The position numbers were made by a program, and so were the translations under genes. DNA of 63,143 nucleotides, filler included, from Dugesia japonica (lineage: Eukaryota): assembly GCA_001938525.1 (NCBI GenBank). It is 6 parts of 6 records of this genome, joined end to end, with 100 filler letters (N's around TTAATTAATTAA, not from the genome) between each part and the next. Parts side by side here need not be neighbours in the genome. Positions count along the whole stretch, not along the records: positions 28,308 to 41,275 come from MQRL01483210.1; 5 more parts are not named here. The stretch is one strand, 5' to 3'. The notes under the pieces were generated by a model. That model made no database searches. It was not told where the DNA came from and worked only from the letters and a program-made list of their open reading frames with translations. Position 1 is the stretch's first letter, and every line of letters begins with the position of its first letter. Positions 1 through 56,970 of this stretch are shown here, one piece after another.

Positions 1-1339
1 AACTGTGATTAATTGCATTTTTAATCTGTGTTTTTAATCTGAGACGTAATTTTCAAATTGTAGTCATTAAATCTTGTTATTTATAATTTATGATCTGAAC
101 ATTTTAAATTATTAAAATTATTATTAGATCAACTTTGCCCAAGATATTGCCGAAAATTGTGTCCAACACTTGTCTTTTAATGGACATTCATAACGCATGT
201 TAGGATGTTTTAATATTATACATAAAAATTTTATGAAAAGTGCCAGAAAAATTTTATTTAATAATAATTGAAGAAATTTCAATTAATAAAAAAGAAAATA
301 ATTAAAACAATTAATTGTTTTAATATTGCTATTTTGTTAGAATAAATTTTTCACTAGACTTAATTGTAACTTATTAATAAATATTTATAGATGGAAACTG
401 CAGGAAGTATAGCAGCGGCTAACAACGCATATGTCCATGTTCTCAGCAACAATAACATTGTCTTTCTCTTAATTTTTCTTCTTGTGGTTTTGTTAATCAT
501 CTACATTAAGTAACATTTTAGAGAATATGATAGATCATTTGATGTAGAATTCAGAAGAATGGTGGAAAATTTACAATGTTGTTCTTAAGCTTTTAGTTTT
601 AAAAACCGAGTATTCCTGTGTGAAGAGTGTCGCGACTTCTGCAAGCTTTCATTGTAAAAATGATTGTCATTTACAAATGTAAACGGAACTAAATTTAAAA
701 TTTATGGGACGAAGCCCAAATTATTGAATAATCTAAAGGCTAAGACGAGGACTAAACAGAAAATACAATAAATGCTGAAACAGATAGCGAAAGATGATAT
801 AGAAAAAGAAGATACTGCTATATCTGCAGACTCTAACGACTATATAAGATTTTTTAGGAATGAAGCAAAACGGAAATGTGGTCACAGGGTTTATGAAACT
901 AATTATAAATAATTATATTTTAGAAAAAAAGCATTTCAAATTCAAAGCAATTAAGATATTTCATTAACTAATTACATTAATAAAGTTGATTATTTGTATC
1001 ACAATTTGCAAATGCAATTGCAAAATATGAATCATGAAGTTATCTTAAATGATTGTAAACTTAACATAGAACTATTAAAAAATCGATTAGCCATTTCCGT
1101 TAGAAATCATGATTTGGTCACTCCAACATTGTTGAAAATATTGTGTTTTTACACGAATAATCGGTGAAACCATTTGTCAATATGTACCTGTATAGGTATC
1201 ACTAGTTTATTTTAATAGATGTGTAGTAGGACTACTAATCATTTACAAAAGTAAATTGATATTTATGATCCCAGTAACTCAAATGTTATTAAAAAAAATT
1301 TCAAAGGCTCAGAAAGGAATATTTAATTATGTAATGTTG

Positions 1340-2900
1340 CGATTATACTAAGTGAACGAACATTAAATTGTTTTAACTGATAAGAAATCATCTTCCCCCA
1401 AAGACATAGAGCAAACCAATAAAATTATATTGTTCTCACACACAAGAAAACATGAAATTTTAGAGGTAATCATAATAGTGTATCAACAAAGTGAAATTCA
1501 ACCTTACTATGATTTATTTTTTGGTGCGGAATATTATAAAGTAGCTGCTAGGAACGTAGTATTTGATTGTTTCACTGGATAATTAGTGAAAATGGCTTTA
1601 AAACAAAACGGGATTATGAAAAAAATTAAGCATATTTATACATGTAAATCATAATATCACCTCTCACAGAAAAAGTATGCATTATTAATACTAGTCATAA
1701 ACATCAAGAAGAGGTGCTGTTTGAATCCAATCCAGTGTTAATGGAAAAATATCGTATTCCTTGAACTGGCAGTATCAGTAACGTTCAGGGTATTAAAATT
1801 TGTATAAAAATGGGAAATTTTTATACAAAGCCATAGATTNTGTTTCTAGATACGAATATGGATATAATATACGTGCCAGATGATGAAAAATCTAAACATT
1901 TAAACTCAACCTTAGTGTAACAGAACATTTGATCCTGATATTGAGTACTATGACGCATCATGCTGCGATAGTAAGACATTGTTTAGGAAAGAAAATATTT
2001 AGATGAATAATCTATTAAGAAGATTTGATCATATTTTCGCCAAACATGGATACGATCTAGGAATTACAAATATCTTAGAGTAAAGAATAACTCTCAAGAC
2101 AACTAAACCGANNNNNNNNNNNNNNNNNNNNNNNNNNNNNNNNNNNNNNNNNNNNNNNNNNTAAATTAAGGCCGTTTCGAATACCAGAAAAGTTAGAAGC
2201 TAGTGTGGATAAACAAATAAAATTGATGTTGAAGTATAGAATTATTAGTCACAGTAAATCACCATATTAATCTCCAAGCGTAGTAGTAGCTAAAAGAGAT
2301 GGATCTGTGAAACTGTAAAACTTTTGTAAGTTAAACAAATCACTGTTAAAAATAGCGCTTGATTATCATTATTGAGTTGAGTATTTTATAAATTAAGAAA
2401 AGCGTTGTATCATTTTGTCGCATGCACCAAAGGGCTTCTGTCCAATCGTATGTACAAAGGAAACTAAAGCAATAAACAGCATTTTCGATTAATTTTGGTC
2501 ATTACGATTACACTGTCATGTAATTCGAAATCACTAAAGCTCCGAAACAGTTTCAAGGAATAAAATACTAGAAGACGTAACATTTATAATAGTATATATA
2601 GACGATATCTTGATCTTCTCAGAGAATTAGAAGAAGAGATTTTTAGATTGGAAAAACCTAACTTTAAGCGTACAAAATGCAAGCGGAGAAAGGATATCTC
2701 GAAAGGGATTATAGTCTAATTCACTAAATATCATCAAAATTCAAAATTTTCCACAATCAAAGAATACGAAACAGATCGAATGATTCGTGTGATTTGCAAT
2801 ATATTATCGTATATTCATCAACAATTTTTCAGCATTAGCATTTCCGCTTATACAATTACTTTAAACAAATAATAGCTTTAGTTTGAAAGACCTTTCAATT
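1340..2900 (+). mobile_element. Decayed Ty3/gypsy pol remnant (protease end, dUTPase-like linker, RT)
   Basis: Hand translation gives LRPFRIPEKLEASVDKQIKLMLKYRIISHSKSPY*SPSVVVAKRDGSVKL (~2167-2315) and the RT catalytic motif VYIDDILIF (2592-2618). Upstream EEVLFESNPVLMEKYRIP resembles the pre-RT region of the element at 35.6 kb. Many stops and frameshifts. Confidence 0.85.
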
Positions 2901-9864: not shown

Positions 9865-9964
9865 NNNNNNNNNNNNNNNNNNNNNNNNNNNNNNNNNNNN
9901 NNNNNNNNTTAATTAATTAANNNNNNNNNNNNNNNNNNNNNNNNNNNNNNNNNNNNNNNNNNNN
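9865..9964. other. Artificial contig linker N44-TTAATTAATTAA-N44
   Basis: The identical 100-bp construct recurs with its 12-mer at 9909, 18742, 28252, 41320 and 50528. The 12-mer has stops in all six frames. Confidence 0.95.
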
Positions 9965-18602: not shown

Positions 18603-18862
18603 AACGATATGTTTTTAATTTGAAGTCTAATAAAATAAATAGAAATATTTACAAACTATGCATACAATTATTATAAAAATATATAAAGAAATGTTTTNNN
18701 NNNNNNNNNNNNNNNNNNNNNNNNNNNNNNNNNNNNNNNNNTTAATTAATTAANNNNNNNNNNNNNNNNNNNNNNNNNNNNNNNNNNNNNNNNNNNNTAT
18801 ATATATATATATAAGTAATAGGAAAACCACTTTTTAGGCTCAGAGGGTCACCCTTTTTTATC

Positions 18863-18970: not shown

Positions 18971-19056
18971 TCATAATAAAATTTCATAATAACATCCTCT
19001 TAAATAACAAAACATCCTCTTTTTACTCTCTATGATTAAATTATTTCTTTATAAAA

Positions 19057-22872: not shown

Positions 22873-22881
22873 TATAGAAAA

Positions 22882-23622
22882 ATGGGTGATAATAATATAA
22901 CAGAAGAAGAATTAGTAAAATTAGTTAATTCTAGAAAATGTAAATCTGTGAAGATCAATGGTAAAAATTATTATATTTCTAAAAAAATTAAAGATGAACT
23001 CAAGAAAGTTCCAAAAGAAGGTGGATTTGCATTTCTAGCTGCTATTCCAGCAATAATTGCAGCATTAGCAACTTCAACTGGAATAGCATCTGGAATTGCT
23101 TCTACAGTTTCAAATTCTAGAGATGCTATCAAAAAACAAAAAGAAACAGAATTAATTGAATTACAAAAACAAAATGAGGCTAAAAAACTAGCAAACTCCA
23201 CAGGACCAGTTACAACCACAGGACAAGTTACAACCACAGGATCAGGAATCAAAAACCACGAGGGCAACAAGAAAAAAGCAAAAAAACATGGTAAAGGACA
23301 GAAAAAACAGAATAAAGCAACAAGCGCGAAAAAACAGAAAAAACATGGTAAAGGTATTTTTTTAAATCCATATCAAGGAACTGCAATACATAAATATTTA
23401 AAAAATATTGATCCTAAATTTAAATCCTTAACTAAAAAGTTTAAATCTGGAACTCAAATAATTAAGAAAGGAAAAGGTATTTATTTAAATCCATATAAAT
23501 CCGGAAAAGGTATTGAAACTGAAACCGAAGATGAAGATGATGATGATGAAACCGAAGATGAAGATGATGAAGATGATGATGAAGATGAAGATGATGAAAC
23601 CGAAACTGAAGATGATGAATAA
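22882..23622 (+). CDS. Putative virion core protein (adenovirus pX/pVII-like), basic with an acidic tail
   Basis: KEGGFAFLAAIPAIIAALA resembles the GG+hydrophobic segment of adenovirus pX and of Polinton core proteins. Repeated GKG/GSG motifs, duplicated GKGI(F/Y)LNPY, K-rich middle, D/E C-terminal tail. Confidence 0.7.
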   Translation: MGDNNITEEELVKLVNSRKCKSVKINGKNYYISKKIKDELKKVPKEGGFAFLAAIPAIIAALATSTGIASGIASTVSNSRDAIKKQKETELIELQKQNEAKKLANSTGPVTTTGQVTTTGSGIKNHEGNKKKAKKHGKGQKKQNKATSAKKQKKHGKGIFLNPYQGTAIHKYLKNIDPKFKSLTKKFKSGTQIIKKGKGIYLNPYKSGKGIETETEDEDDDDETEDEDDEDDDEDEDDETETEDDE

Positions 23623-23673
23623 AACCCATAAAATCCATAAAGGAAGAAAGGGCCAAAATTAAATCTTTATAAA

Positions 23674-24945
23674 ATGGTTGAAAATAGAATTAAAGATTTA
23701 AAAGCTCTAATTGCTGCACAAGAAAAATATAATATTTTTTTCTGTAATAAAGTTCAAGATTATAACACTTTACAATCTAATTTATCCACTTTACAATTAC
23801 CAACTATCTCCGCAATTGAAAAACTTGGAATAAAACAAGAAACAATAGAAACTAGAGATATAACAAAATTCTTTTTAAATGAAAAAATCTTACCATTCAC
23901 ACCAGAATATTCAATTGATAACATTAATGCAACCGGGAAATTAACTCAAACAATTATTCCTAAATTTTCTAGATTAGATATTGCAGCAACTGATAAAATT
24001 AAAAGTTTTATAGAAATAAATTTAAAAGGAAATAATATTTATTTATTCACCGAAGAAGATAATAAAAGTTTCTTATTTAAATCTGAAGTTATACCATACA
24101 CTGATGGAATTTTTAGATTAATCCTAGGAAACCTAGATGGAAAAGAAACACCTGAAGATATCGAGACTTATTTAAAATTTATATCTCCTTTGCCAACTAA
24201 TTGTGATTATGTTATTAAATTAAAAAATAAATTTAGAAAAGTTGAACTCGAAAAACCTAAAAGATCCAAAGAAAAATCCACAGGGGACGGAAAAATATCT
24301 ATCCCACAACAAGAATCAGAACCTGAAACAGAAAAATCAGTAATACAAGAAAACTCAACCAAGGAATTATTAGCAATATTTAATAAAGATAATTTAGTAC
24401 CATATGAATTTAAAAATACAATAACAAAAAAATTAACAGAATCAACAACACCAGAAGTTTTTAAAAAAACTATTAATGGAAAAGAATTCAAGTTCATGAA
24501 ATTTCCTAATAATGTTAATAATATATATTTTTATAAAAGGGATGATTATGGTTATTATCATGATGGTATAAGAAGTCATGCATTAGATAATAATTTAATT
24601 AATATATTTTTAGGAAACACAGAAAATCTAACAAAGGAAGACATAAAAAAAAATATTGTTACATATGCAAATTTGGTAAAACCACCTGTTGATGATGCAT
24701 ATTATAATTCTTTAAAGAAAAAAAGTGGAAGTGGACTCAAAAACCAAAACCATAAAGGAAGACACAAGGCAAAAACGACTAATCCATTAGCATTATTTGA
24801 AAAGTTAACATTGTTAATTTCAGCTGCAAAATCTGGACATAACAATTTACATGCTGAAATTAAATCTTTATGTAAACAATTAAAATCTAAAGGTTTATTA
24901 TCTAACAAGATATATAAAAATTATAAAACTAAATATTTTAGCTAA
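23674..24945 (+). CDS. Conserved Polinton uncharacterised protein
   Basis: 423-aa intact ORF. The C-terminus SGSGL...PLALFEKLTLLISAAKSGHNNLHAEIKSLCKQLKSKGLL matches the P.EL..RL.LL.AS..AGN....EI..I...L...G.I motif common in invertebrate Polintons. Confidence 0.7.
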   Translation: MVENRIKDLKALIAAQEKYNIFFCNKVQDYNTLQSNLSTLQLPTISAIEKLGIKQETIETRDITKFFLNEKILPFTPEYSIDNINATGKLTQTIIPKFSRLDIAATDKIKSFIEINLKGNNIYLFTEEDNKSFLFKSEVIPYTDGIFRLILGNLDGKETPEDIETYLKFISPLPTNCDYVIKLKNKFRKVELEKPKRSKEKSTGDGKISIPQQESEPETEKSVIQENSTKELLAIFNKDNLVPYEFKNTITKKLTESTTPEVFKKTINGKEFKFMKFPNNVNNIYFYKRDDYGYYHDGIRSHALDNNLINIFLGNTENLTKEDIKKNIVTYANLVKPPVDDAYYNSLKKKSGSGLKNQNHKGRHKAKTTNPLALFEKLTLLISAAKSGHNNLHAEIKSLCKQLKSKGLLSNKIYKNYKTKYFS

Positions 24946-24950
24946 ACAAA

Positions 24951-25622
24951 ATGTCTCATCAATTCTTAGTAGTTGGAACAGAACAAGATTTAAAAATTAA
25001 TTTAGATTATCCGATAAAGTTAGATTCAGAATATGAACTTGGCATGTTATATTTTTCATGTTACAATATTATTTTTAATATCAACAATCTAAATAATAAA
25101 TTCATTATCGATGGAAAACCACAAGGGCTAGAACCAGGATCATATGAAGTTAAAGAAATATCAAATCGATTAGAAAAATATCTAGAAATTAAACCTGACA
25201 CTGCAACATCTAAATGTAACATCAAAACTAAAATCACAATAGAATTTGATAACAAATCATTCTTCCATACATTACTAGGATTTAAACCTGGAAAATACGA
25301 TCCTGGAAATTATTATTCTTCTGATAAGATTAACATTACAAATATTAACTCGATAAATATAACTTGTAATATTGTTAAAGGTAACTATGTCACTAACAAA
25401 CAGGACACAACAAATATTAATCTTTTATATTCATTTCCAATAAATACCGTTCCATTTGGATATAAAATAGTTGAACGTCCATCACCAGCNNNNNNNNNNN
25501 NNNNNNNNNNNNNNNNNNNNGACGGTTTTAAATTTAACATCGTAGATGAAAACTTTAACACCATCGACTTTAACCAAGAAACAATTACAATTTTAGCTCA
25601 TTTACGTAAATATCGACTTTAA
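24951..25622 (+). CDS. Minor capsid protein (penton, single jelly roll)
   Basis: PIKLDSEYELGM, FNINNLNNKF, PGSYEVKEI, INITCNIVKGNY, PFGYKIVERP, IVDENFNTIDFNQETITILAHLRK are Polinton minor-capsid signatures. Confidence 0.88.
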   Translation: MSHQFLVVGTEQDLKINLDYPIKLDSEYELGMLYFSCYNIIFNINNLNNKFIIDGKPQGLEPGSYEVKEISNRLEKYLEIKPDTATSKCNIKTKITIEFDNKSFFHTLLGFKPGKYDPGNYYSSDKINITNINSINITCNIVKGNYVTNKQDTTNINLLYSFPINTVPFGYKIVERPSPXXXXXXXXXXXDGFKFNIVDENFNTIDFNQETITILAHLRKYRL

Positions 25623-25708
25623 AATATCTGTTTCTGAAGTGTTTTCAAAAATATCTGTAATAGGTTTAGGTTTAATATTTTTGATTAAAGATGCCAAAAA
25701 GACATTTT

Positions 25709-26256
25709 CTAAATTTTGTTGTCTGTCTTTATGGCCTTTATGGTTTTTATATAATCAAATACTTCTTCAAGTGAAATAATAGGATTTTTTATTCTAAAAT
25801 TAAAATAATTAAATATATCATAACAAATTTTTATTTCATCATTTGTCAAAGGTGTTTTTCTTTTATTGGAAACATATCTATTTAAAACTTTAATATATTT
25901 AGGCTTATTAAATGGATCAATAGGATTATTTCTTTTTTCTTCAATATACATTTTTATTTCGGAAACACCACTTTTTAAACTTACAAAATTATAAATATCT
26001 TCAAGATTTTCTTCAATATCACCAGATTGATAAATAATATTAAATCTTTTTTCATCAACATATTTTTTTAAAACATTAATATTTTTTTTTGAATTTATAA
26101 ATTTAAAAATATTTATAAAATTTTTAATATCAATATAATCAATATAACTAAGATCTTTTTTTTTTCTTCAATATACATTTTTATATCCCAAATAGTGTTT
26201 TTATAATTTACAAATTTATAAATATCTTCAAGAGTATAAATGTTTTCAGGTGTCAT
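25709..26256 (-). CDS. Antisense accessory ORF (~180 aa) with an internal repeat and one frameshift in an A10 run
   Basis: ATG at 26256. The frame is restored by one extra A at 26156-26165. LEDIY(K/N)FV...IKMYIEEK occurs twice. Confidence 0.55.
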
Positions 26257-26305
26257 TTTAAGATATTTTTTTTAATCATAGAGATTCAAATCTAATATTT
26301 AAGAA

Positions 26306-26824
26306 ATGAGCGAAGCCCATAAAAGAAGAACCATAAAGGAAGAAAGAAAATGGAATTTATTAGATTTTTTAAAAACATTTGGAATCAACACAACAACAAA
26401 TTTTGATTTATATTCGATCAGTAAATTTTTAAATCTTCCATTAGAGATTTACATGAAAAATGAAAAATTTACACTGACCTCCGGTATGAATTATATTTTT
26501 AATTATCAAAATTCAAATCAAAATGGAACACATTGGGTTGCTTACAGTAAAGGTTATTATTTTGATTCTTTTGGTTTAAAACCTTTAAAAGAAATCTCAG
26601 GTGTAAAAGTTTATAATAAAATTCAAGTGCAACATTTCGGAACTGAAATATGTGGCATTTTATGTATTTATTTTTTATATAAAATTCGACATACCAAATT
26701 TGACATGATAATATCTGAAATGAAAGATTTATATGAAGAGCTACGCGAAGAAACCATAAAGGAAGAAACCATAAAGGAGAAAAATTTAGATATAGAAAAT
26801 AGCAACAAAGGAGAAAATGAATAA
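26306..26824 (+). CDS. Adenain-like cysteine maturation protease
   Basis: GTHWVAY, YFDSFG and QVQHFGTEICGILC supply the His-Asp-Gln-Cys catalytic set of adenovirus/Polinton proteases. Confidence 0.92.
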   Translation: MSEAHKRRTIKEERKWNLLDFLKTFGINTTTNFDLYSISKFLNLPLEIYMKNEKFTLTSGMNYIFNYQNSNQNGTHWVAYSKGYYFDSFGLKPLKEISGVKVYNKIQVQHFGTEICGILCIYFLYKIRHTKFDMIISEMKDLYEELREETIKEETIKEKNLDIENSNKGENE

Positions 26825-28127
26825 GTTTGGTGCTACTGCTGATTCTGGCAATTCAACAGAAATATTAAAAAATGTTAATGCTAAAATAAAAAACTCAGAA
26901 GCTCAGGCTGAAAATAAATATGTAAATGAAACTGGTGATACAATAACATCTTTAAAAATAAAAGAAGATCCCAAGGATCTTTCTGATGCAGTTAATTTAA
27001 AATATATAAAGTCACTTGAAGAAAAATTAGAAAGACATGAAATTATTTTCAATAGATTATTAAAAGTTGATAGTTTTACAGCTAACAAATTATATTTAGA
27101 ATCTAAAATCTCTGAATTAAAAAATTTGAATATCGATATTACAGTTCTGAATTCTAAAATTCAAAAATTAACAAAGAACTGTAATCAGGATACATTTGAC
27201 AATATCAATTCTGACATTAAAAGATTAAAACTTGAACTGTTTCCATATAAAAAAAGTGATTTATTAATTAAATTTAAAATAATAGCTAATGATGCAAATT
27301 TATCTGAAAAATTTAAAAAAGAAATTGATATATTAAAAACAAGAATTAATATTTTACATGATGATATCGACAAGAAAACATTTGACATTTATATAATTTC
27401 TATTAATACAATAAAATCTAATATAGAAAAATATAAACCTATAATTTTAAAATTAACTTCTGAAATTAAAAAAGTAAATGAAGAAGGGCGAGATAAAATA
27501 TATTCTAATAAAATTGATGTTGCATTTAAAAAATATAAAGAAACACTTTCTAATGAAACATTTTCAGATTTAAAAGAATTAATTGATAATCACATACCAT
27601 ATATTGGTGTGAATGGGAGTTATAGTATATTTTTAATTTTCAAATTAATTTTTATAAGATTTAGTATTATGGATAAATATGTTAATGATTTTAGTTTTAA
27701 AAAAAGTTTTTTGGATGATTATCTTGTAAAACCTTTTGAAATTCATTTACATACAAAAGTAAATGAAAAAATTAGTATAAGTATTACTGGTCATTGTAAA
27801 ATTGAAAAATTTACATATGTCATTAGAATTAATAATATTGCAGTGCCATTTTTATATGTAAAACCTGAATCTGGAAATATTAATATTTATCGTGAAAGTA
27901 CTGAAATTAATAAAGATCTAAATATAAAATATATTGTAATAATTTTACCTGAAAAAATTCATATAAAAGTAATAAGTGTTAATTTATATAAATTAGAAAA
28001 ATTTGAAAAATTAAAAGAAGAATATAAAAATAAAAAGTTTCATAAGTTACATGTTGACAGAATTAATGTTTATTTTAAAACTTATAATTTAAAAGCTTTA
28101 ATAGAAATGTTTGATAATGACAAATAA
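26817..28127 (+). CDS. Putative fibre/attachment-like protein
   Basis: 436-aa intact ORF overlapping the protease stop. The N-terminal KYVNETGDTIT...DPKDLSDAVNLKYI resembles viral fibre anchor repeats (GDTMTG, DAATKKYV) and is followed by a coiled-coil-like region. Confidence 0.5.
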   Translation: MNKFGATADSGNSTEILKNVNAKIKNSEAQAENKYVNETGDTITSLKIKEDPKDLSDAVNLKYIKSLEEKLERHEIIFNRLLKVDSFTANKLYLESKISELKNLNIDITVLNSKIQKLTKNCNQDTFDNINSDIKRLKLELFPYKKSDLLIKFKIIANDANLSEKFKKEIDILKTRINILHDDIDKKTFDIYIISINTIKSNIEKYKPIILKLTSEIKKVNEEGRDKIYSNKIDVAFKKYKETLSNETFSDLKELIDNHIPYIGVNGSYSIFLIFKLIFIRFSIMDKYVNDFSFKKSFLDDYLVKPFEIHLHTKVNEKISISITGHCKIEKFTYVIRINNIAVPFLYVKPESGNINIYRESTEINKDLNIKYIVIILPEKIHIKVISVNLYKLEKFEKLKEEYKNKKFHKLHVDRINVYFKTYNLKALIEMFDNDK

Positions 28128-28307
28128 TATGTTTATTTAGAAAATAACAATTCAATATTAACACTGCTGGCTGCGAATCAAACACTGAATGATAAATTTC
28201 ACATTAGNNNNNNNNNNNNNNNNNNNNNNNNNNNNNNNNNNNNNNNNNNNNTTAATTAATTAANNNNNNNNNNNNNNNNNNNNNNNNNNNNNNNNNNNNN
28301 NNNNNNN

Positions 28308-29614: not shown

Positions 29615-31118
29615 TTGTAATCATGAGATAATAAATAAATCAAAGTTAATTTCAATAATTAGCATTCATTTTATTATTAAACACAAACCAATCACATTTG
29701 ACTTGTTAAAATTATCAGACAATTAAAAACGCTCTCGATTTTTATTGGTTAATGTTTTATTTCTCTGAGATGTTATCGCATGTAAATTGTTGTTTTTATG
29801 TTTGCTTGTTAGTTTGTGTTTCGAAACTACTCTAATTCCTCAAAATAAATAATCTCACATTTTTTTGTTAATTTTTATAATTCAGTATTTTTATGTTTAT
29901 ATTTGTTTGCTGCACCCATTATCAATTCGATTTGATTTTAGTTTTGTTACATTATATTTGAGTATTTTTCACTGTTAGTTTAATTATCACATTAATCAAT
30001 GAAATTTAACTATGTAAATAAATGTGTAAATTTGTTTTGAATTTTCATTGATAATGTAACAGATTTTTTCCAAAAAATTAGTTATAATATTTACAAAGTT
30101 TAAATTAAAATTAAAAAAATATTTCAGTAAAGAATGAATTTATTAAACTTTATTATATTNNNNNNNNNNNNNNNNNNNNNTTATTAATATTTGCAAATCA
30201 AAGGAGACTTTTCAAAGCTGAATTTTTCCATACACTAAAGAGAATAATCTTTATTTAAAATGACAATCAATTTACTGTCATCATTAACCAGTTACCAGTG
30301 TCCACTTCAGAACTTTTAGCGTTTTTTGTATTACACCAAATCGTTAATTTTGAAAAGAAAATTCATAGTAATTATATACAAAACTTTACACCATATTTAA
30401 ATTTTAATTTAAAACTAAATTTAGGATCTTTTTATTAGAAAATGTTTCCATTAATAAAATTAAACAACAATGAACTCTTTGATCCATCTCTCTGTTACTG
30501 TTATACAGCTATTTTTGTTGTTTAAGGCAAAACTTTTCTATTGCTTAGAGCACTGAATTGTCGACAACTTTGGATACGTTTGAAGTGTAAAAAATAATTT
30601 CTTTAATAATAATAATAATAATAATAATAAATCTTCGGAATATTGGACAAATCTCTTCACCGTCGAACTAAATGAAAAATATCCTACAAAGCAAAACAAA
30701 TTAATCAACAAATAATTAAATTATACAGAAATACTACCTATTTTTCCAGAAGGTTTACAGCAATTTGTGGCAAATTGTTGGAATTTTCGTCCAAAAACAG
30801 CCAATGGAATATCGATCTGAAAAGAAAATTAGTATAAAAAGGACAAAAAACATACGAAATTTACCCTTAACAATCTTGTCATTTGAGATAACAATCCAAT
30901 CATTGAAATAAATTGTTATCCAAGTAGAAGAAACATCGATGGAGCACAGAAAACGAGGCAGACCACGTGTCGAAACCAGTTATGATCAAAACGGAACACA
31001 AATTAAACCGACAGAATATCAACTCAAAACAAAATAATTAGAAGCCAAAACATCTCACCTGAACAGATTATCACAATAATTGGGTCAACAATCAAAATAC
31101 AAACATGTCAACGGATCA

Positions 31119-31510
31119 TTATCGACTAATAAAATTGGAAAAGATCTCACCAAAATACTTTGTCCAGAAAAACGATCTTGAACCGGCAAATTAGAAACAC
31201 CTTCTGAAGTAGAAAATTTATCACAAGTAATTAAACCGATTTTAATAAAAATACCATCGACGAAATAAAGATGTGCTATTAAACCACGAGTAGAGAATGA
31301 AAGTGTTGTATGCGAGTTATGGCGGGTTGGAATTACAAAAGGCAGAGCAGTAACCATAGCGTTTCTACTTCACCAGGCTATATACACATTGTAAAAAGAT
31401 AAACCAGCCAAATTCCCAGATGGAGGACAGTTCCGCATGACAGGAATTATATAGAGAACAATTGAACCATGGATTCATCAACAGGGTGGATTGTCAGCAT
31501 TCATTAAATC
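31119..31510 (+). pseudogene. Bcl-2-family-like domain (BH1 and BH2 motifs)
   Basis: One frame with in-frame stops. ESVVCELWRVGITKGRAVTIAFLL (31299-31370) versus Bcl-xL BH1 EQVVNELFRDGVNWGRIVAFF. RTIEPWIHQQGGLSAFIK (31455-31508) versus BH2 HLEPWIQENGGWDTFV. Confidence 0.7.
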
Positions 31511-31634
31511 AATGTTACCACAGAATTGTAATCAAACAGACCTTTCAGCGAAAGTAAAAAGAGTGTTAAAAAATTTGTTAAAAAGTATTACAGGTTCAAT
31601 GTCATAAAAACGAGGTAGATCAAATACAGGATCT

Positions 31635-33600
31635 ATGTTGCCGATTTTAATCATGCTAATGTTGTTAATATTACCAGGGACACAATGAATGGTAGCGTTC
31701 GATGGCGATGAGATGGACTTTGGAGAGAAAGTTTACTCCTTAGTAGATACAGAAGAGTGTTCTGATGCGAACCCAGAACAGTTTGAGTCTATAAAAACTA
31801 TTCGGTCTATCAAATATATCAGGAATGCGATTATTATCAAGCTATGGTAGAAGAGTGTATAGTAACAGTAGCCACCTTCGTATTTAATTGTGGATATAAA
31901 AGTTGGTAATCTGTAATTGATCCAGGATTAAAAAAGAAACCAGTATTATTAACTAGACAAAAATGCAAGCAAGGATTTGTGTTTCTAAAGATAGACTTAA
32001 AAACAGGCGTCACGGTGAAAACTAAAAGGGATTTGTAACTAGTCAAAAGTTAATCACAGTTGAATCAATATCACCAGTAGACAACGAGTATTATATACGA
32101 TACGGATTCATATACGATAGATGGTATAGTAGCAAAAAATGTGGTAGTAATAGAAAGTTACACTGTGGAATTAAAAGAATTTAAAGCACTATTCGATGTA
32201 GATGGCTTAACAATGAAAACTCAACCAGCGTGTAGAGCGTCAGACAAATCATGTAGTTCAGGAATATCGACACTTGTATACGATGTATAGCTAAAAAAAT
32301 GTAAAATGATCTTTTTAAAGAAGTTAATATTCAACGAATATCAAGGAAAGCGTTATCAGGAACCAACAGAAAATTTAGAATCGTTTACTGAGAGTAAAAA
32401 AGCAGGTAAAGCCGCCGAGGAAGGACCACAAGGATTAGAAATGAAATGGATGGACACACTAATTTTATTGATTTTAGTTAGCAAAAAAGATGGAATCAGA
32501 TTAATAAAAAATAAAGCAATATAAAAATGGGAAGGCATCGTATATAAAACAAATTATAAAGGCCTACATATCTTGGAACGAAAGTTAGCAGGAGCACAGC
32601 ATATCATTGGGAACGAAGATATAAAACTACATCTGTATATTAATAATAAAATGGATTTCCTGTATCACAGAGACAAGGCTCTGTAGAAAAGATGTATCAC
32701 GATTTGGTACATAATGACTGTATATTAAATCAAGAATTGTTAAAAACAAAACTATCAATAGCAATAAAAAATCCTGATAATGTAGCACCACTACTTCCTT
32801 TCGGTAAAGGACAATTTGCCAGAAAAGTGGGAGAAGTCATGTACATTTATCCGTGCAAAGAAATGTCAGCCATAATGACTCCAAGACCGAAAGACAGAGA
32901 AACATGTTATAACGAACTAGAAAATTGGTATATAAACAAAACAAGATACGTGCAACCTGTCACAAGAATAATATCACCGATGGACTATATTCCAAATCAA
33001 ATAAACTAATTTAATATTTTAGGACCAATGTATGTAATGCCAAATGAAAAATGAATCAGATTTCAGTATAGATCCACATGGGATCCGAAACCTCAAAAAT
33101 TTCTCTTTGATCAAATTGAACGGCGGGGAAAGATTTGAATCTCTAAACGTAGCAGAAAATGGAATTTATAGCTCGGACGATTTAGCCAGAGCTCGTGAGC
33201 ATATGCTCTTCCCAGTAAAAAGAATGCAAATATTATCAAAAATAGTACAGATAGCTAACGGAACGTTATGCAATAGAAGACCTAATTACGATCTATTATT
33301 ATCACCAGATCACTTTCAACAAGCAACTCACAACGTTATGAAAAAGTTGTGGGATAAATTCATAATATTTGGCTAAGTAATGGTAGGGTTATTAAGAATT
33401 ATATTAATTATATATATCGTGAAAGTAGTCATCACACAAATGTTTGCTTGTTTCGATATATACGGGAGAGAAAAACGAATAAATTAGAAATTAATGACAG
33501 GAATATTTCCGTTCTGAGCAAAGACAGTTGTACTAAACAGCCACACAAAAGATATCTATCAAATAAAGAAATTCCTCAAGAAAATGAGTAAAAGACATGG
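31635..33600 (+). pseudogene. env: Chuvirus-like (class III, gB-related) envelope glycoprotein
   Basis: Signal peptide MLPILIMLMLLILPG, then AFD..YSLVDTEEC, FNCGYKSW, MYHDLVHNDCILNQELLKTKLSIAIKNPD, GEVMYIYPC, CYNEL..PVTRII, GIYSSDDLARAREHMLFP and a TM helix at ~33378-33450. Collinear with chuviral glycoprotein motifs. Confidence 0.82.
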
Positions 33601-34310
33601 AACAGATCAGGAAATTGGAGCACAAATCAGACAACTATGCATCGAATATCATACTTAAAATCACTACAAAATCAGCTACAACTAAAATGGAATGATATTA
33701 CCAGCAGTGAAAGCAATGAATCGGAAGGAAATATTTAATCAACAAGTTATTACAGAGAAAAAGCTCCAGATTACGATGAAGTTGTACGAAAAGACAGATA
33801 ACAAGAGAAAAGAAAAGCCAAAAGGAAATAAAAATTAACAAAGTTGAAAAATCATTCAAAGCCATATATCAAAGAAATGCACAAACATACACAAAAAGCA
33901 TTCAAAGCCATATATCAAAGAAATGTACAAACATAAAATCTAGGAAATCCGCAAGTAACCAATGCATGGGTAATATGTAATGACGGATTATATTATCCAA
34001 TGGAAGATCCAACACAACTGAGACGAATACCTAGATTATATGATTTTTTAAATCTACCACTATACCCAAATTGGACTATGCCAAGAATGCATTATCACCA
34101 GGTCAAACAATATAGCAACCAATAAATTTACCAATGCCACAGAAAATGGAACCAATAGTACAGCGAAACATTATGAGCTCAAGAAATTCCATGATACTAC
34201 AAGACAATACACAATCACCAGTACGAAACCGACAGCCACTAACAATGCAGAGCAGTCAAGAGTTAGAAGCAAAAACAGTCTGTACAGGAACAACAGCAGA
34301 AGGAAGTGCT

Positions 34311-34630
34311 TTACTAATGAAAGTAAAATTTAATGACATAGAACTAACATAGCCGATCAACACAGCAGCAAGTATATCGATGATACATCCATATGCACTC
34401 CCACTACAGACACACGGACCAATGCAAGGAACGAAATTTAGGATCAGTAGTCTGGACGGATGAGTTATCTAACCGCTCGGACAGATAAACTGCTCAATCC
34501 ACAGAGAAAACGCACCAAAAATTCGACACACATTAACTGTAATGGGTAGATTAGCCTACAGTTGTATCTTGGGATTGGATTTACTGCTGCAAGTGCTAGA
34601 TAACGGTATAATTAACTTAAATCAATTAGG
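34311..34630 (+). pseudogene. Retropepsin-like aspartic protease, copy 1
   Basis: LLMKVKFNDIELT*PINTAASISMI...ISSLDG...PLGQI...SCILGLDLL. Catalytic DTG reads NTA here. Confidence 0.7.
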
Positions 34631-34691
34631 AATATTCAAGGAATCGAATGAAAATAATAAACCACCAAAAGTTACTCAACAAGTTACACCT

Positions 34692-34853
34692 TGTGCAATA
34701 TGCGGAGTAAAAAGACATAACGCATTACAATGTCAATTGTCGAAATCTAAATGCCATTCCTGCGGAAGAATCGGTCACATAGAAAAAATATGCTTAGCAA
34801 AATCATCATGATGTTACAAGTGTGGAATAAGAGGTCATAAGGAAAAAGAATGT
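34692..34853 (+). pseudogene. Three CCHC zinc knuckles (nucleocapsid)
   Basis: CAICGVKRHNALQC, CHSCGRIGHIEKIC and CYKCGIRGHKEKEC, each C-x2-C-x4-H-x4-C. Confidence 0.92.
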
Positions 34854-35208
34854 TTCAGAAATGCAGTTCTAAGTCAACTTTGGCTTGGAGAATAAGCTAG
34901 TAGAGATAACTTCATGATAAACGAATCAACAGAAACTATAACAAAAGGATTCGAGGGAGAAAAATACCAACTGCAACTTACAACAGTGGTAAAATTCATG
35001 ATGGCATAAAAAAATGCCACCACCAATGTCAAATTTAGCCGGAAAATGGGAGAATTTCAAACTCAACAGAATACACGGAAATCCATTGAATGATTACGAG
35101 GATATCGACCAAATTCATTTAGAAGAATACGAAAATTTAGATAAAATACAAGCAGGCCGAGGCATCAAAGAGAAAGTCTTTTATGCATTCCGTCCAGGCG
35201 GACCACGA

Positions 35209-38200
35209 TTTGGCATCAATATTAAATTAAATGGACAAAAAGTTAATTCACTTCTAGATACAAGATCAACTTTATCCGTAATAAATAATAGCTTATAACA
35301 GCTTATCCAAAGAACAACGAAAAGGGATTCTTATCAACGATCAAACGGCTGTAGAGCAGTAGACGGAGTATCAGTCAATAAAATCGGAAAGTTACCCTAT
35401 GAAGTATTTTACAGGAGAAAAACAGTATTACACAATATGACAGTAATGGATGTAACTGAAACATATTTTGGGAACAGATATACTACCGCAACTATTAACG
35501 AACGGAATAATCAAATTATCAACGTTACAAGTCAAAGGTAAACGGAAAGGCCGATACTCAAAAAGCTATGAGGTGTTTAATTCCGATAGAATGATCATAC
35601 CGAGAAAAAGCCAAGTGTGCTATCTCGCAGACACAAAGACTCCACAGAGAGGAACAATGTTATTTGAATCATATGATGGGTTCTCACAGAAATATAAATT
35701 ACCAGCAGCAGGAGAACTTGTAACAGTAAAAGATGGCGGGAAAGTACCAGTCAATGTAGTAAATTTCTCAAGTAAAGATATTAGAATCCACCCAAATTCG
35801 AGACTAGAAACATTGACACCCATATTAAACTTCGTCCAGCAAGAAGAAAAGAAAACTACAGAAAGCGACTTGAAATCAAAGAGCACGGTAGAATTCCCTG
35901 CCATGGAAGATGATTTTAAAAGTTATATACCAGACAGTAACCCAACAGAAGTAGACAGATTATTCCAAGTCAATTCTGAAATCATATCAGCGGAACAAAA
36001 GAAACAGCTACTAAATCTTTTGGAAGAGTATAGAGATATATTTGCATGGACGGACGATGAATTAGGAGAATGTGGTGTCACAATGCATACGATTCCGATA
36101 ATCGATGAAGACCCAGTAAAATTAAAACCATATAGAATTGCACAATCTCAGAAAAAAATTTTTGATGCAGAAATTAAGAAAATGCTAGAAGCAAAAGTAA
36201 TTGAACCTAGCTGCTCACCTTGGCTATTCCCAGTAGTGTTGGTTAAAAAGAAAGATGGAGCAACAGGTTTCTGTATCGATTACAGACAGTTGAATGCAAA
36301 AACAAGAAAGGAAACATATCCTTTCCCTGAAATAAACGAATCATTACAGTTGTTGTACAGAGCAATAATATTCACAACACTCAATTTAAAAAGAGGATAT
36401 TGGCAACTAAAAATCAGTATTTACAGCAGGACAAGATTTATATCAATTTATTCGAATTCCATTCGGTTTAACTAACGCACCAGCATCATTTCAGAGGTAC
36501 ATGAATTTTGTCACACATGACATAGCACATTGTATGGTAAATACAAAGGATCTATTAATATTCTCAAGAGGATTTTCGAACAGTCTTTGTTAGACTTCAA
36601 CACTGGATTTTATAAGTTAAACCTACTAAGTGCGATTGGGCTAAAAACAAAGTCACGTTTTTAATACGTCAAATATCAAATAAGAGTAGATAACCAGACC
36701 TGAGGAATACAGAAAAGATAAAAGAATTTCCAGTGCCTAAATGTGTCAGAGAAATACTGGAATTTCTTGGATTAAGCAGATATTACAAGAAATTTATTAA
36801 AGGTTAAGCAACAATTTCAAAACCCATGCAAGATCTTGTAAAACAAGATACCACTTTTATATGGACAGAAGAACAACAAAAATCATTCGAATCTCTCATA
36901 GATCAATTACTAAAAGCACCAATTTTGGTTCATCCAAATTTCGAAAAACCATTCTTACTTGCAATTGATGCAAGCGGATACGCAGCAGGAACTGTATTAG
37001 GCCAATATGATGATCAAGGTCGAGAACACGTTGTAGCTTATTTTAGCAAAACATTTCAAGGAGCTTAGAAAAATTACAGTACAACAGAATAAGAAGCTCT
37101 CGCAATAGTAAAAGCAATTAAACATTTTAGACATCTATTCCTTGGACACGAAGTCATTATATTATCAGATCATCAACCACTAACTATGATTGGCCAGAAA
37201 CCATTACGAACTCTCAGACTTGCTAAATGGGCAATTAGTTTACAAGAATACATGCCGAAAATAAAATTCAGGATCGGCAAAGCCAATTCTAATGCAGATT
37301 GTTTATCGCGAGCAATATTTCCTGAACTTGTAAACAAACAAACGGAAGATATCTGTTTCTTATTATCAGAAGACATTGACTTTGAACAATTCAAGGAGAA
37401 ACAGAAGGAAGATTCAGAAGCCAAAATTATCCAGAAATATCTAATGGCAAAGCAAAATGATGCATTAAAATGTAACCCAGAAATGAGAAAACACTTACTG
37501 AAAAATGGATGTCGTTATACAATGAAAAAGGGATGGTTAATGACACAGAATGGAGAAAAAAGGCAACATTTATACCAAAATCGCACATAGAACGAATTTT
37601 ACAACAATGCCATAATGAAGTCCTTGGAGTACATATGTCAGCAAGAAAAACAGAAGCAAAATTAAGACACAAATACTATTGGCCAAGAATCGCTCAAGAT
37701 GTAAAAGATTGAATAGCACATTGTCAGATATGCGCTTCCAGAAGAGGAACAGGAGCTTCAGAAAAGGCACCTTTAAAACCAAAGCCAATACAAACTAAAC
37801 CGATGGAGATAATGGAGATGGACGTATGGCAGAGAATGTAATTTACCAATCGATTTGAAACACCAGTTTCCGATATTGTAATATATGGAACAAGAAAAGT
37901 ATGTCATTCGAATGAAATAGAAAATCCAAGAGATCTGGAATAAAGCAAGACTAAAATTCAAATATTATCAAGAAAGTGTCAAAGATTATCATGCCAAGAA
38001 AGCAAAACCCCATACGTTCAAGAAATGAGATAGAGTATTAATTAATACTCCGGAAATAGAAATCGGAACGATAGCAAAGTTAAAAAGGTTAGGCAAAGGA
38101 ATTTACAAAGTATTAGTGGTCACAGAAACCAATGTAAAAGTCAGATTAATTGGTAAAATACTCCAGAAACAACTATAGATTCATGTAAATCGATGAAATA
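35209..38200 (+). pseudogene. pol: pol: protease copy 2, dUTPase-like linker, RT, RNase H, internally deleted integrase
   Basis: LLDTRSTLSVI...ILGTDIL; PYRIAQ..SPWLFPVVLVKKKDGATGFCIDYRQLN; LAIDASGYAAGTVLGQ; HNEVLGVH..YYWPRI..CQIC. Confidence 0.92.
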
Positions 38201-39381
38201 AGGCAGCGTTACAAATAAAAAAGCATCATGGAAATACATAAAATAGAAGTACAAGAACTGGAAGGAACTGAACTAACTCAAGAGGCATCGAGTGACTCTG
38301 AAGATGGACAAAAATTGCCATATAAAGGATTAAAATGTCGACGAAAACCACTACCAATTACTATGAAATACGATAAAAAAATGTTTAAGAACTGTCTAGA
38401 AGGCACGACCGAAATCATACAATGATCTCTTAGTGTAAAAGGTGAGCTTGGAACACCCATTGCCACCAAAGAGAACCTCTAAGAAAACAAAGAACAAGAA
38501 AATCAAAGATCAAGAGACTCAACATGTGGCATCAAATGTAAAAGAAACGAAGATAATACGAACCGAAATTCGTAAATATAACGAAAAACATGCATTTGAA
38601 AAGCAAGACAAAAAGTGGGATCAACATAAAAAAGACTTAGAACTATTAGCTAATTATCCCGAAATCACACAAGAAAACGGTGCTTGTACAATATGTGATA
38701 ATAAATTTCTCGAAAATGTCCGAATATGACACGAATGTTGGATAACACTTTGTCATCACTGTATAGAAGAACCAATGAAACATTTAAAACGAGAATCTAG
38801 TCGTGCCTCAAAGTATTGGGCATCAACATATAGATGTTTTCTTACTAGAGTAGCAGGTGGATCAGCTTTGCCTCCGCAAACACGAGAGTTACTTAAAAAT
38901 TTCAGAAACAACAGATAACCAATTTCCAATGAATGGAAAAGAAAAAAATTGCCGCGGACGGTAAGAGTTTCAAAGTAGACCTAGGAGATTTAGTGGCAGT
39001 AATTAGCAGGAAAATTGTCAAATATGGAAAACTAAAATCCAGTTGAGCACAACAAGTACAAAAGATAGCGTATGCAAAGTGGGCAGAAAAGNAAGCACAA
39101 AGGATAGCGTATGCAAAGTTGGCAGAAAAGTAAAACAAGCAAAAGACAAGGAAAAACAAAAAAAGCAAATTCAAGATAAGAAAAATGAAATTCTGGACAC
39201 CCCACAATATTTAAACAAGGATTAAGTGGTAATAAAACAGCCAAGAAATAGAGAAACAACGGAAAATGTCTGCTCAGAAGGCATTTACTAATTAGATGGT
39301 CGGCCACAAAAGGAAAGACAAGAAGAGTCAAAACACAGATCAACAATAGTCAGTTTATTTGGCTCATACGCATCGGGAACA

Positions 39382-40830
39382 ATGGTAATCTTAATAATGT
39401 CTATACTAATCTTGCCAATAGCACAAGCAAAAGAACGCAAATTTACACCATGTAATTGCAAACAAACTATAAACGACAGCATCATAGACGATCTATGGAT
39501 AAGATTGTTGCTAGCCGGTATTGTCATATTTTATTGCGGACAACGATTATTAACTCTATTCATACCAATATTATCAGGCAAATGTACCAGTCAAAGTTGT
39601 GAGATAACAGAACATGTACATACAGAGCATTGTCTACTCATAGAGTCAGATGAAAGGATTATGGAGAATATTAGTTGAGATGCATTGTCAAGGGAAGAAA
39701 CAGCGACCAGAGAATTGTCCCTTAATAAAACCACAGAATTAAAATCAGCACTATCAACTGGAAAGTTCCAGTTCCAACAAAGAAAGACTAAATATAAAAT
39801 CACAAACTTCAGAGTCAATACAAATCGTAATAACCCAATAAGACGAATATAATTGGGATAACCACCAATTGTTTACTAGAGTGGCAAATACAACGAGTCC
39901 ACTGATGAGTTTGAAACCAGTATAATGACACTGAAGCGGAATATCCTAATAATGTATACTACCACAACCAAGCAGACATTTAGAATTTGAACATCCAATG
40001 GATGTTTAACGGCGGAAACAGTGATGGTCAAACAACAAATAAAATTTAATTGCAACAAAATATATGTGATGGTCATGAGTTTTTCAGGGCAAAAAATAAG
40101 CGTCGAACGATAACAAATGCAAGATACCAAACCACATATTATGGAACTAAAAAAGCAATCCATAACAATGAAAACGAAAATAAACACATTTATAAGACAT
40201 TCAAGCAAAATTGCGAAAATACAATGGACCAGTCTAGATGCACAAAATATGATAGTCGAACAAATCAACATTCTTAAACAATGGTTAAATCCAACGAACA
40301 GATTGGTAGTGGAACGCTCAGGATTTGAGAGAGGTAGTTTTAATAGAGAATTCGTATTATATAACAATATATTATTCGTACAGCGTGTTATGATGAAGAA
40401 CAGACGAATACTAACCCAACAAATAAAGTATAAAAAGATCTCATTCATAGACAAGATACCAACAACGAAAAAACTAATTACATAAAAAATAACAACAGCA
40501 AAAGAAGCAGAAACAAAACAACCGGAACCACAAATAGAAGGAAGTAATGCGGTAACGCCAGAACAAAAAGCGTTTCTAGAACAAATAATAAGAAAGATAC
40601 ATAAACCAAACGCTACTACAGTTGCATTAATTTACAATTTATTGACATTGCTAAGCTTATTTTTATTAATCCCTATTAAAAATAAGCTCAGCAATGCCAA
40701 TAGATACACCAAAGGCAAAGAACTGGAAGACGAATGTTTTTTAACAGCAACAGCATCAATAGTTTTCTGCATAATCTGTATAATAGCAACAATACTAGTA
40801 GTCAAGCGACTCAGAAGGCAGTACAAAGGA
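39382..40830 (+). pseudogene. Second predicted membrane glycoprotein (env-like) downstream of integrase
   Basis: Signal peptide MVILIMSILILPIAQA, N-terminal CxC (FTPCNCKQ), scattered Cys, and C-terminal TM IVFCIICIIATILVV followed by KRLRR. Fragmented by stops and frameshifts. Confidence 0.5.
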
Positions 40831-43800
40831 CTAAGACTCCCTGTTGCAATGCGAAACCTAATAATAATTATCAACTACGCTTCAATAGGGCAGGAATCAG
40901 GTGATCAACCAACATTGGCGGACCACCGAATACACTTTCGCATGAATAAACTTCTATTGTACAGATGCAAAAAAAGAATATAAAATTTTAAAAATATAAA
41001 AGATTAGAAAAATTATCAGTATTAAATGCAGAAATATGATTGTATATGTCACTATATCAAAAAAGAAAATTCTAAATTGGAAAGTTAAAATCAAAGTATT
41101 GTCAGAAAAAGGAGTAAAATCAAACTCTGAATACGAAAAGTTTGGTTAATTAATTTAAATTAATTGGTTTATTAAAGTTAATTGGTTAATTTTAATTCTT
41201 ATTTTAAATATAAAATAAGAATTAAAATTAACCAATTAAAATTTAATAAAAATAAATTATTTCAAAAATTATTACNNNNNNNNNNNNNNNNNNNNNNNNN
41301 NNNNNNNNNNNNNNNNNNNTTAATTAATTAANNNNNNNNNNNNNNNNNNNNNNNNNNNNNNNNNNNNNNNNNNNNCAGTATAGATATACACATAACAAAG
41401 AACACGGGTCATATATTATATTATTTATATCGATTTGTGTATCCATTAATGAAATCAGTACATTTTTGTATGAAGTAGTTGTGTTTTAGTAAATTTAATA
41501 GGATATGAAGTATGAATATTTTCTAATGAAATTAAATTGGTATAATACGTATTGAGATTAAAATGCTTCATAATAAAATTATTGTATACTCATTCAAATA
41601 ATACATTTTTTTTATGTTTTAGTATAATTATTAAACTTTTTTTGTATAAAGCGTGTAAGACCTGTTGTGCCATCATGAAATAGATCTATTTTTGTATACA
41701 ATGTGGTTATATTTGTATGAAAGTTTGAATGTTTTATTAAAATCGATAAATTCATGTATATGCATTTTTATTGCATTTATTCATGAGGTGGCTTAAAGTT
41801 ATCATTAACAATGGCGATTACTTTTAACAATTTGTGTCACTTTTTAAAATAGATTTTGAAGTTAGCTGAAAAATTTTCATTTTTTATTTGTACACCTAAT
41901 ATTTTTCTAAAGAAAAGTAAATATCATTTTACATTAATAACATTTACATTTTGTTAAGCATATCAAAGAAAATTAAAAATTTTTTGTATCAATTTGTTCT
42001 TTGTGAAAAATTAGAAATTTCATTTAAAAATATTTTTAACATTGCAACATTAGAAAAAGCAACTTATGAATCAATCTAACCTTCATTTTATTGAGTAATA
42101 TCGAATAACACGTAATATAATTTTACTACAAGTACACTTAATGACGAATTTATTCCAAATTGTGAAAATTTCACTAGAAAGTTTTGCTATAAAACATAAA
42201 ATTTAATATTCTAAATATAAATAGACATTGATTAATTCGCTACTTTAATTCCAGTTTCATACGTAAAGATGCGATGCGTTTCTTGTATAAAATAATAAAA
42301 CAGAAATTTTTATCAATTTTTTTCAATCAAGAGTAAATTTATTTCTACAATATTTTTCTTACGATTTATATTTTAATTAAAAAATTGATTTGCAAAGTTT
42401 ATATTTGTAAATTAAATAACTTAATTATTACTAATTCAGACACAAATATGTTATTAACGTTGAATAGATTAGATTATTGAATTTTATATTTCAATTTGAT
42501 CAATAACGATAATTCTTGAGGGAATTCATACATTCATTTTTAAATATTATCAAATAATGATACAAACTAATTTCAGTGAAATTTTATTTATTTAATAAAA
42601 TCGATATTTTATAGCACATTTTAATGAAACTACGAGAATTTATTTTTTTCAAATTTATCGGTAAAAATTAATGTTAAATTTATTCGTGTATTGATATTTA
42701 CCGAATATTTTTAATATTATGAGACAGGAACTTTGGCAATATCAAAAATATAATAAGAATAAGAATATTAATTATAATAATAACAATACTAATAATAATA
42801 ATGATAATGTTGGAGTATGGGTAGTTATTTTAATAAACTGTATTCTGTTGATTGATAGACTGTCCTTGTGCATCTAGTCATGCCCGCTCACAATTTACCC
42901 GGACCTTATAAGACCAACTTCCGGTAACGTAAGTAACTTCTCATGGAAGTGCCGTTTTAAGTTCATTTGGTTTACTTTCATTTGATTTGGAGCTGTAGAA
43001 GCCCTACACTGATCAGTGTCACCAACCTTACGCCCACAAAGTAAAAAGAAATTTATAACATCATGAAATATTTTTTGAAGAAGCACTTTATTATATCTGG
43101 ATTATTCTGCATTACATCGTGCCCATTGAGGGAAAAGAAAATTGTTGCTAAATGAATCTTGATGGGATTGAATAACTTTTATAATCAGGTTCGATTGGGA
43201 TGCGCTTGTCGGTCATCACAGTGACATTAGAGCGATTGTTCAATGAATCATTCAGAGTAACTACTGATTATAATTGAGATCGTTTAACATCTTGTATCTG
43301 TAATCCTTATAAACGTTTCATAGATTGTGTTTACCGCATCTTAAGAGTAACCCTAGACATAAACCAATGAAAACTGCCTACAGATATTTAATGGAAAACA
43401 ATCTGCAGCCCTTGCTAAAAATAATGCGAGCATTCGTAGGAAACCATCTGCAACACTCATTTCAAATAAAATAAAATGCACATTCAATTAGAATAGGCTT
43501 CGAACAGATGTAGAAATATTTCATTGGAAACGAATCTTTATTTTGCCATTTATTTAGAACTGACATAGCAGCAATCTTCAAGTGATGATGGCCAATAAAT
43601 TTGATGTTCAATATGAATAAATATCGAGCCTAATCATTCTATGGAAACAAATATTTATTTGAAATTTATTTCAAATCCGATAGAGAATCAAGAGGGTTTA
43701 AGTTTGCAAATCAGTAAAATAAATCTTACCAAAATCAAAATTTTCGACAAGATGGCGAATTTTCTTGTTCAAAAATAATTTCTTATAAAATAATGAATTA

Positions 43801-49114: not shown

Positions 49115-49139
49115 CTGAATTTTGTCTTGTTATTTTATT

Positions 49140-50483: not shown

Positions 50484-50583
50484 NNNNNNNNNNNNNNNNN
50501 NNNNNNNNNNNNNNNNNNNNNNNNNNNTTAATTAATTAANNNNNNNNNNNNNNNNNNNNNNNNNNNNNNNNNNNNNNNNNNNN

Positions 50584-56500: not shown

Positions 56501-56970
56501 TTTAATTCCATTCGCTATATCTTTAAACTTTCATATTATTCGAAGTTGTTTACCAACTGAAACGTTAAAAGCTTTAAAATGCATGTTCTAATACAAAGAT
56601 ATGCCAAAGAAACCTGAAATATTGCGCCAGTCCTAAAATTTTATTTGCATAGTATATAGTGATGGAATACGACCATTTGAAGTTCCTAAGCTCAAGCAAA
56701 AGGGAGAGAAAAAAGAACGTTAGGAATTATAAATGTTATAGAAAACGAAAAATTTTGCTAGTTTTCACAGAATTTGTCTTTATCACAGTGAAATATTCCA
56801 TATATTACCTGATTATCGGAGAAAAATGTTTCCGACATATTATCATTGCATATATCAAACGACAAAATCATCTTTTGTGTTCCTCATTAATTGGAAGAGT
56901 CCATCCGTTATCATAATTTTACAATGAGTATCAAACAAAATCATTTTTGGGAAAATCATCCGCATATCTC

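Follow-up and report, generated by a model that had tools for sequence, protein, structure and literature searches.

The envelope pseudogene

The window analysed here, a 63,143-nucleotide stretch of Dugesia japonica DNA, is AT-rich eukaryotic sequence (GC 0.18-0.37 per kb) made up largely of mobile elements. Within it, a stretch of ~10 kb (roughly 30,900-41,000), A-rich on the + strand and with no N runs, carries a broken envelope glycoprotein (env) gene. This gene was found upstream, not downstream, of a Ty3/gypsy pol and directly behind a Bcl-2-like segment, all on the + strand. As the sequence from 30181 to 41275 has no N run (one single N only), the adjacency of env and pol crosses no scaffold gap.

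The env gene opens with an internal hydrophobic signal (31635..31685), recognised by hydropathy and common in position to all 13 relatives printed. It is followed by an ectodomain pseudogene of class III (gB/Monjiviricetes) type (31686..33360), delimited by matches to PF24664, by colinear tblastn alignments of relatives and by a gB profile match, and then by a transmembrane (TM) segment and tail (33362..33646), supported by positions 472-603 of the PF24664 model and by hydropathy, which places the start of a TM-like stretch at 33362. The signal, cysteine/helix and TM layout given in a preliminary description of this DNA could be located directly on the segment, with the motifs DCILNQELLKTKLSIAIKNPD at 32716-32778, GEVMYIYPC at 32830-32856, GIYSSDDL at 33161-33184 and REHMLFP at 33194-33214. 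That description did not mention the position upstream of pol, nor that env is a pseudogene, with 10 in-frame stops spread over five pieces and four frame changes, near 31800, 32050-32110, 32670 and 33090.

When env was read as five in-frame pieces, with X placed at stops, four of them matched PF24664 (Monjiviricetes_fusion) in model order, at positions 7-59, 60-129, 326-420 and 472-603. Three pieces (31.8, 63.4 and 65.9 bits) exceeded the curated cut-off of 27 bits, while the other match was weak (13.2 bits, E 0.022). The third piece had no Pfam match but could still be aligned to relatives. Over the whole segment, the env region of one relative, P0183, scored 164 bits, whereas 50 triplet shuffles reached 21.9 bits at most. 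A profile of 51 env family members matched the central helix of herpesvirus gB chains (HSV/PRV, PDB) at E 3e-4, in a weak, local alignment of about 75 of the 642 profile positions. The PF24664 and gB matches bear out the class III call of the preliminary description, and support env as a Monjiviricetes/gB-type (class III) glycoprotein whose fold and fusion activity are predicted.

Organisation of the element

A KRGRPR motif (30951..30968), which we take to be AT-hook-like, lies close to the left end of the repeated sequence; four of the 15 relatives scanned have a similar motif upstream of env. The Bcl-2-like segment (31200..31535) is in frame with the env signal and broken by stops, with a BH1-like motif at 31314 and a BH2-like motif at 31470. 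Taken alone, the segment matched Pfam Bcl-2 weakly (E 0.05-0.07), and its top matches in the PDB were all Bcl-2/Bcl-xL (E about 0.07). A profile of the window sequence and four relatives matched Bcl-xL at E 1.8e-5, with the rows chosen by eye from the 4 of 13 printed relatives in which the motif was visible, a choice that favours a match. The start motif of env lies 49-79 residues past the BH2-like motif in all five sequences (the window and the four relatives).

Downstream of env, a first, degenerate aspartic-protease-like domain (34317..34631) gave weak phmmer matches to P0069 (E 0.011) and P0075 (E 0.007) and no Pfam match. Three CCHC zinc knuckles (34692..34853) come next, followed by a degenerate retropepsin-like protease (35188..35451), which matched Pfam Asp_protease_2 at E 0.008 and aligned with residues 1488-1557 of P0183. 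The linker between protease and reverse transcriptase (RT), at 35465..35960, aligned with P0183 from residue 1577 and had no Pfam match; by position it is a putative dUTPase-like region, and Burro carries such a domain between protease and RT (PMC6431247, in part). A broken RT and RNase H (35969..37272; RVT_1, RT_RNaseH and RT_RNaseH_2; 53% over 446 aa to P0183) precede the zinc-binding and C-terminal parts of an integrase (37557..38193; Integrase_H2C2, E 8.5e-18). The integrase lacks about 140 core residues, the alignment skipping from residue 2344 to 2488 of P0183 at 37826. The protease-RT-RNase H-integrase order and the gypsy-type domains are those of Ty3/gypsy (Metaviridae) elements.

A decayed post-integrase ORF (39370..40900), with N- and C-terminal hydrophobic segments at 39370, 39481, 40621 and 40753 by hydropathy, likely belongs to the element. 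It gave no convincing match in Pfam or the Atlas, where 40486-40980 had no usable match, and it matched none of the post-integrase tails of five relatives in sequence, although the layout is the same.

No gag capsid was found in the window, and the N-terminal parts of eight relatives yielded only a weak CCHC match. Self-comparison gave no LTR pair around the element, and no viral polymerase or nucleoprotein family was matched in the scanned pieces. The left side of the copy looks truncated (the low-depth flank extends up to 30569), while the right side reaches the N gap at 41276. With its stops and frame changes, no integrase core and no gag or LTR pair seen, the window copy is inert.

Other elements in the window

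A second env remnant (517..1561, +), more decayed and belonging to the same clade as the env described above, is followed by an RT remnant at about 1990-2890, so that env again precedes pol. Two other remnants of decayed Ty3/gypsy elements, at about 10760-14400 (-) and 15900-18400 (+), gave no env match; the pol of the former fell outside the env-bearing pol clade described below. In a cluster of long AT-rich ORFs at 19036-28127 (+), the leading ORF encodes a protein-primed family B DNA polymerase of 1278 aa that has C2H2 fingers at its N-terminus, and the other five ORFs had no informative Pfam match; presumably this is a Polinton/Maverick-type element. A 290-aa stop-free frame at 48254-49129 (-) had no Pfam match, and at 59800-62011 gaps interrupt an AT-rich tandem repeat that has a unit of 119 bases. 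The 100-base N gaps at 9865-9964, 18698-18797, 28208-28307, 41276-41375 and 50484-50583 (central TTAATTAATTAA) are spacers and not biology.

Related polyproteins

A phmmer search with the central env piece returned 124 matches, including 17 relatives at E<=1e-10, and 8 of the 14 of these that were scanned combine env with protease and/or RT domains in a single ORF. Word-based homologue searches found nothing with the central env piece as query and two proteins with an alignment as query, and a search of viral and metagenome contigs for related loci gave no confirmed relative. The closest relatives are single-ORF polyproteins of 2,600-4,800 residues with the order env-protease(s)-RT-RNase H-integrase. 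Three of six cluster members scanned, P0183 (4099 aa), P0185 (3003 aa) and P0187 (4844 aa), carry env and the whole of pol in one ORF, and these three, like P0063 and P0066, can be aligned colinearly to the window over env as well as pol. Among the 13 stand-alone env matches that were looked up were two named chuvirus glycoproteins and one spider protein, the rest having no informative name.

All five full-length relatives (P0183, P0063, P0187, P0185 and P0066) have one or two signal-ectodomain-TM units after the integrase, and a C..L.P.T.Y motif is common to four of the five post-integrase tails. An FN3 lead for one tail was sub-threshold (0.81, Atlas), and Pfam did not confirm FN3 in any of four tails. 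In P0187, P0069 and P0063, each polyprotein has between three and seven protease-like D[TS]G motifs, separated by C2H2 fingers or ankyrin repeats. The P0066 env-pol polyprotein is filed at NCBI under the name of a bacterial MAG, a record that likely reflects eukaryotic contamination of the bacterial bin.

Phylogeny of env and pol

A FastTree reconstruction of env used 81 rows, namely the two window envs and those 79 of 132 proteins whose env region had 380 residues or more. Both window envs fell into a 20-row clade (SH 100), together with all 13 polyprotein-tagged rows and five rows without a pol tag, and none of the remaining 61 rows was polyprotein-tagged. With 29 hand-picked rows, IQ-TREE separated the polyprotein env clade from stand-alone G proteins with 100/100 support and placed P0183 as the sister of the window env (95/90). 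A single clade of the window env and the two named chuvirus G proteins was rejected (AU p 1.3e-7).

In a tree of RT/RNase H with 64 rows, the window pol was likewise sister to P0183 (SH 100), and it belonged to an 8-row clade (SH 98) that held all seven env-bearing pols and none of the 55 others, for which the labelling did not take in env status within their own elements. Because env and pol share the same sister, P0183, they are read as parts of one element. Neither tree has a root from which the direction of transfer could be read, so they speak neither for nor against the retroelement reservoir suggested in the preliminary description.

The comparison with chuviral G proposed in the preliminary description has a divided outcome: kinship at the level of the family stands, but the window env belongs to a clade separate from the two named chuvirus G proteins. 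An endogenous chuvirus copy is not borne out by the 100/100 retroelement env clade and the AU test, and on these sequence grounds the window element is not a chuvirus EVE.

Read depth and transcription

Summed contig depth in two DNA runs was 12-17 in the left flank bin and 29,000-388,000 across 30940-38339, fell to about 850-2,950 at 38340-39079, and was 10,000-126,000 over the tail ORF. The knuckle bins had a depth of 56,000-59,000 in DNA run X1. These sums are no copy number, and as Logan contigs are short and no piece spans the stretch they do not prove linkage; they do show a comparable degree of repetition for env, knuckles and pol. Most aligned contigs were 90-95% alike to the window copy (5578 of 9631 in X1). 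A joint between 30441 and 41233, present in both DNA runs and skipping 10.8 kb, was not accepted as more than a weak candidate for an empty site, the short side having only 22 letters of AT-rich sequence.

In about a quarter of each of two RNA runs, 198 and 8 reads matched, and none (0/198 and 0/8) was at least 99% alike to the window copy. Relatives of the element are weakly transcribed, and none of the aligned reads was close enough (>=99%) to point to transcription of the window copy.

Identity of the element and alternative explanations

The locus is very probably the broken env of a decayed Ty3/gypsy element, which likely belongs to the Burro type of planarians, with a Bcl-2-like segment in front of env and protease, RT, RNase H and integrase after it. 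The gypsy context proposed in the preliminary description is upheld, as colinear relatives, depth and congruent trees all assign env to the adjoining Ty3/gypsy pol. A chimera or nested insertion, with env from one lineage of element and the protease-CCHC-pol block from another, would account for knuckles placed after env, given that Burro1 has knuckles at its N-terminus (PMC6431247, in part) and that the five relatives with CCHC have them before env; 10 and 14 contigs and 5 RNA reads also diverge from the window copy at 33647. Such an origin is nonetheless improbable, since env and pol are both sister to P0183, the depth of the knuckle bins in X1 is of the same order as over env and pol, and the env-pol linker of relatives likewise contains additional proteases and zinc fingers. 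That an isolated endogenous viral glycoprotein came by chance to lie next to a gypsy pol of other origin, a possibility which the preliminary description had itself raised against its reading, is highly improbable: about 1.5 kb between env and the main protease is without a Pfam-confirmed link, but single relatives span env and pol colinearly, the trees are congruent, repeat depth is similar, the second remnant at 517-2890 repeats the env-then-RT order, and the viral polymerase and nucleoprotein families sought in the scanned pieces were not matched.

A further explanation, that a gypsy lineage acquired a Jingchuvirales glycoprotein recently and independently, draws on the Pfam family shared with chuvirus G and on the two named chuvirus glycoproteins among the 124 matches. 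It is very unlikely in view of the separate clade and of the AU test, in which virus sampling was thin (of the 13 stand-alone rows that were looked up, just 2 were named as chuvirus). The env and pol trees also agree, divergence within the polyprotein clade is deep, and the association of env with pol is argued to be ancient in the accessible text of PMC13524379. The fresh capture by a Metaviridae lineage that the preliminary description had put forward is not supported. The combination is already in print (PMC6431247 and PMC13524379, each in part). Domestication of env as a host fusogen gene would fit the low-level transcripts of relatives, but is refuted for the window copy by its 10 stops and four frame changes, and none of the 198 and 8 aligned reads of the two RNA runs reached 99% likeness; we give it next to no credence.

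Proposed function and significance

On the preferred reading of a decayed Burro-type copy, the element would work, by analogy, like a Burro-type enveloped Ty3/gypsy retroelement. An intact element would presumably make a single polyprotein, whose internal signal would route the env ectodomain into the ER. Host signal peptidase would cut there, and the upstream product (gag through to the Bcl-2-like segment) would stay membrane-anchored by the env signal. Env is predicted to be a type I, trimeric class III fusogen with a cytoplasmic tail that continues into protease-RT-RNase H-integrase, and the element's own protease(s) would release it from the enzymes. Particles carrying the fusogen may then bud and pass between host cells, with infectivity as a prediction, and further signal-TM units after the integrase, a layout present in 5/5 full-length relatives, could provide extra membrane proteins. 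A bolder reading, possible but doubtful, is that of a multi-glycoprotein virus-like lineage, in which one polyprotein yields an ER-anchored Bcl-2-like protein, a class III fusogen and one or more fast-evolving type I post-integrase attachment partners (FN3-like in some relatives, and acting like gH/gL or gD for gB), with the env clade as an ancient sister lineage to Monjiviricetes G, or perhaps its source, instead of a capture from it.

These results correct the reading of the locus from a chuvirus capture to a long-standing retroelement env. The main interest lies in the intact relatives, with their in-frame fusion of env and pol, a Bcl-2-like segment at a possible env-signal anchor, and unassigned membrane proteins after the integrase. 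Should these elements form infectious particles, animals that keep adult stem cells would possess a natural vehicle for transfer from cell to cell, with implications for the origin of the class III fusogens of negative-strand RNA viruses.

Comparison with known systems

Grohme 2018 and Jurka 2007 are reportedly the sources on Burro and GYPSM1. These are giant gypsy-like LTR retrotransposons of planarians, above 30 kb in length, and the accessible text of PMC6431247 describes for Burro a 4,873-aa ORF in which gag, BCL2 and env stand in frame before protease, a dUTPase-like domain, RT, RNase H and integrase. According to the same text, the Burro env matches mononegavirus fusion glycoproteins and decayed Burro fragments occur in one species, while expression of BURRO1 is under PIWI control (PMC8532177, in part). 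A search for functional work on Burro and apoptosis, or on Burro, BCL2 and polyproteins, found only PMC6431247 relevant, with subscription literature outside its scope. The window element shares with the Burro of that account the succession of BCL2-like segment, env, protease, dUTPase-like position, RT, RNase H and integrase. It is also highly repeated, and its relatives have a single ORF of 4,000-5,000 aa. As in Burro, the Bcl-2-like segment stands directly before env (weak alone, E 1.8e-5 as a profile), and env precedes pol, an order seen in the broken window copy and, as one long ORF, in its relatives. Unlike Burro, the window copy is about 10 kb long and shows neither gag nor an LTR pair. 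It has three CCHC knuckles and an extra protease-like domain after env, where Burro1 has its knuckles N-terminally; MATH, BIR and ankyrin motifs were not seen in the window; and the membrane ORF after the integrase is absent from the accessible part of the PMC6431247 account. Membership in Burro proper is likely, judged by comparison with the published description rather than by alignment to Burro sequence.

According to the accessible text of PMC13524379, a gB-type env is found across animal Ty3/gypsy elements, those of flatworms, nematodes and bryozoans having the order GAG-ENV-POL, and chuvirus-like glycoproteins are carried by 114 gypsy elements. The gB-type env upstream of a gypsy pol resembles the Platyhelminthes C1a group of 'ancient errantiviruses' (HSV/gB-type ENV) of that study, with which the window lineage also shares the co-divergence of env and pol. 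By eye, without alignment, the domain I/II motifs of the window env match the six Schmidtea envs given there, and it is identical to none of them. Being broken, the window copy would fail the intactness filter of the same study, the main text of which, as far as accessible, has no mention of Burro, Bcl, polyprotein or in-frame. Troyka elements (PMC12440569, in part) were dropped as a candidate, no evidence pointing that way.

With herpesvirus gB, a class III fusogen, the likeness of the env family centres on the central helix (E 3e-4) and is limited to about 75 of 642 profile positions, known from sequence alone. Nematode GAG-ENV-POL elements are reportedly the subject of Sacco et al. 2022. 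Arthropod Jingchuvirales EVEs are treated in PMC10084718, and PF24664 is shared by the window env, Jingchuvirales G and the arthropod EVEs, including copies borne by BEL/Pao elements (PMC10084718 and PMC7642597, each in part). The central-helix and C-terminal cysteine motifs are conserved between the window env and Jingchuvirales G, but the chuvirus G gene stands alone and encodes about 650 aa, whereas the window env is part of a retroelement polyprotein lineage that forms a separate clade. The layout of Bcl-2-like segment, env and pol is already published, and the element adds a further decayed family to the group described, differing from Burro in the minor features of knuckles after env and a membrane ORF after the integrase.
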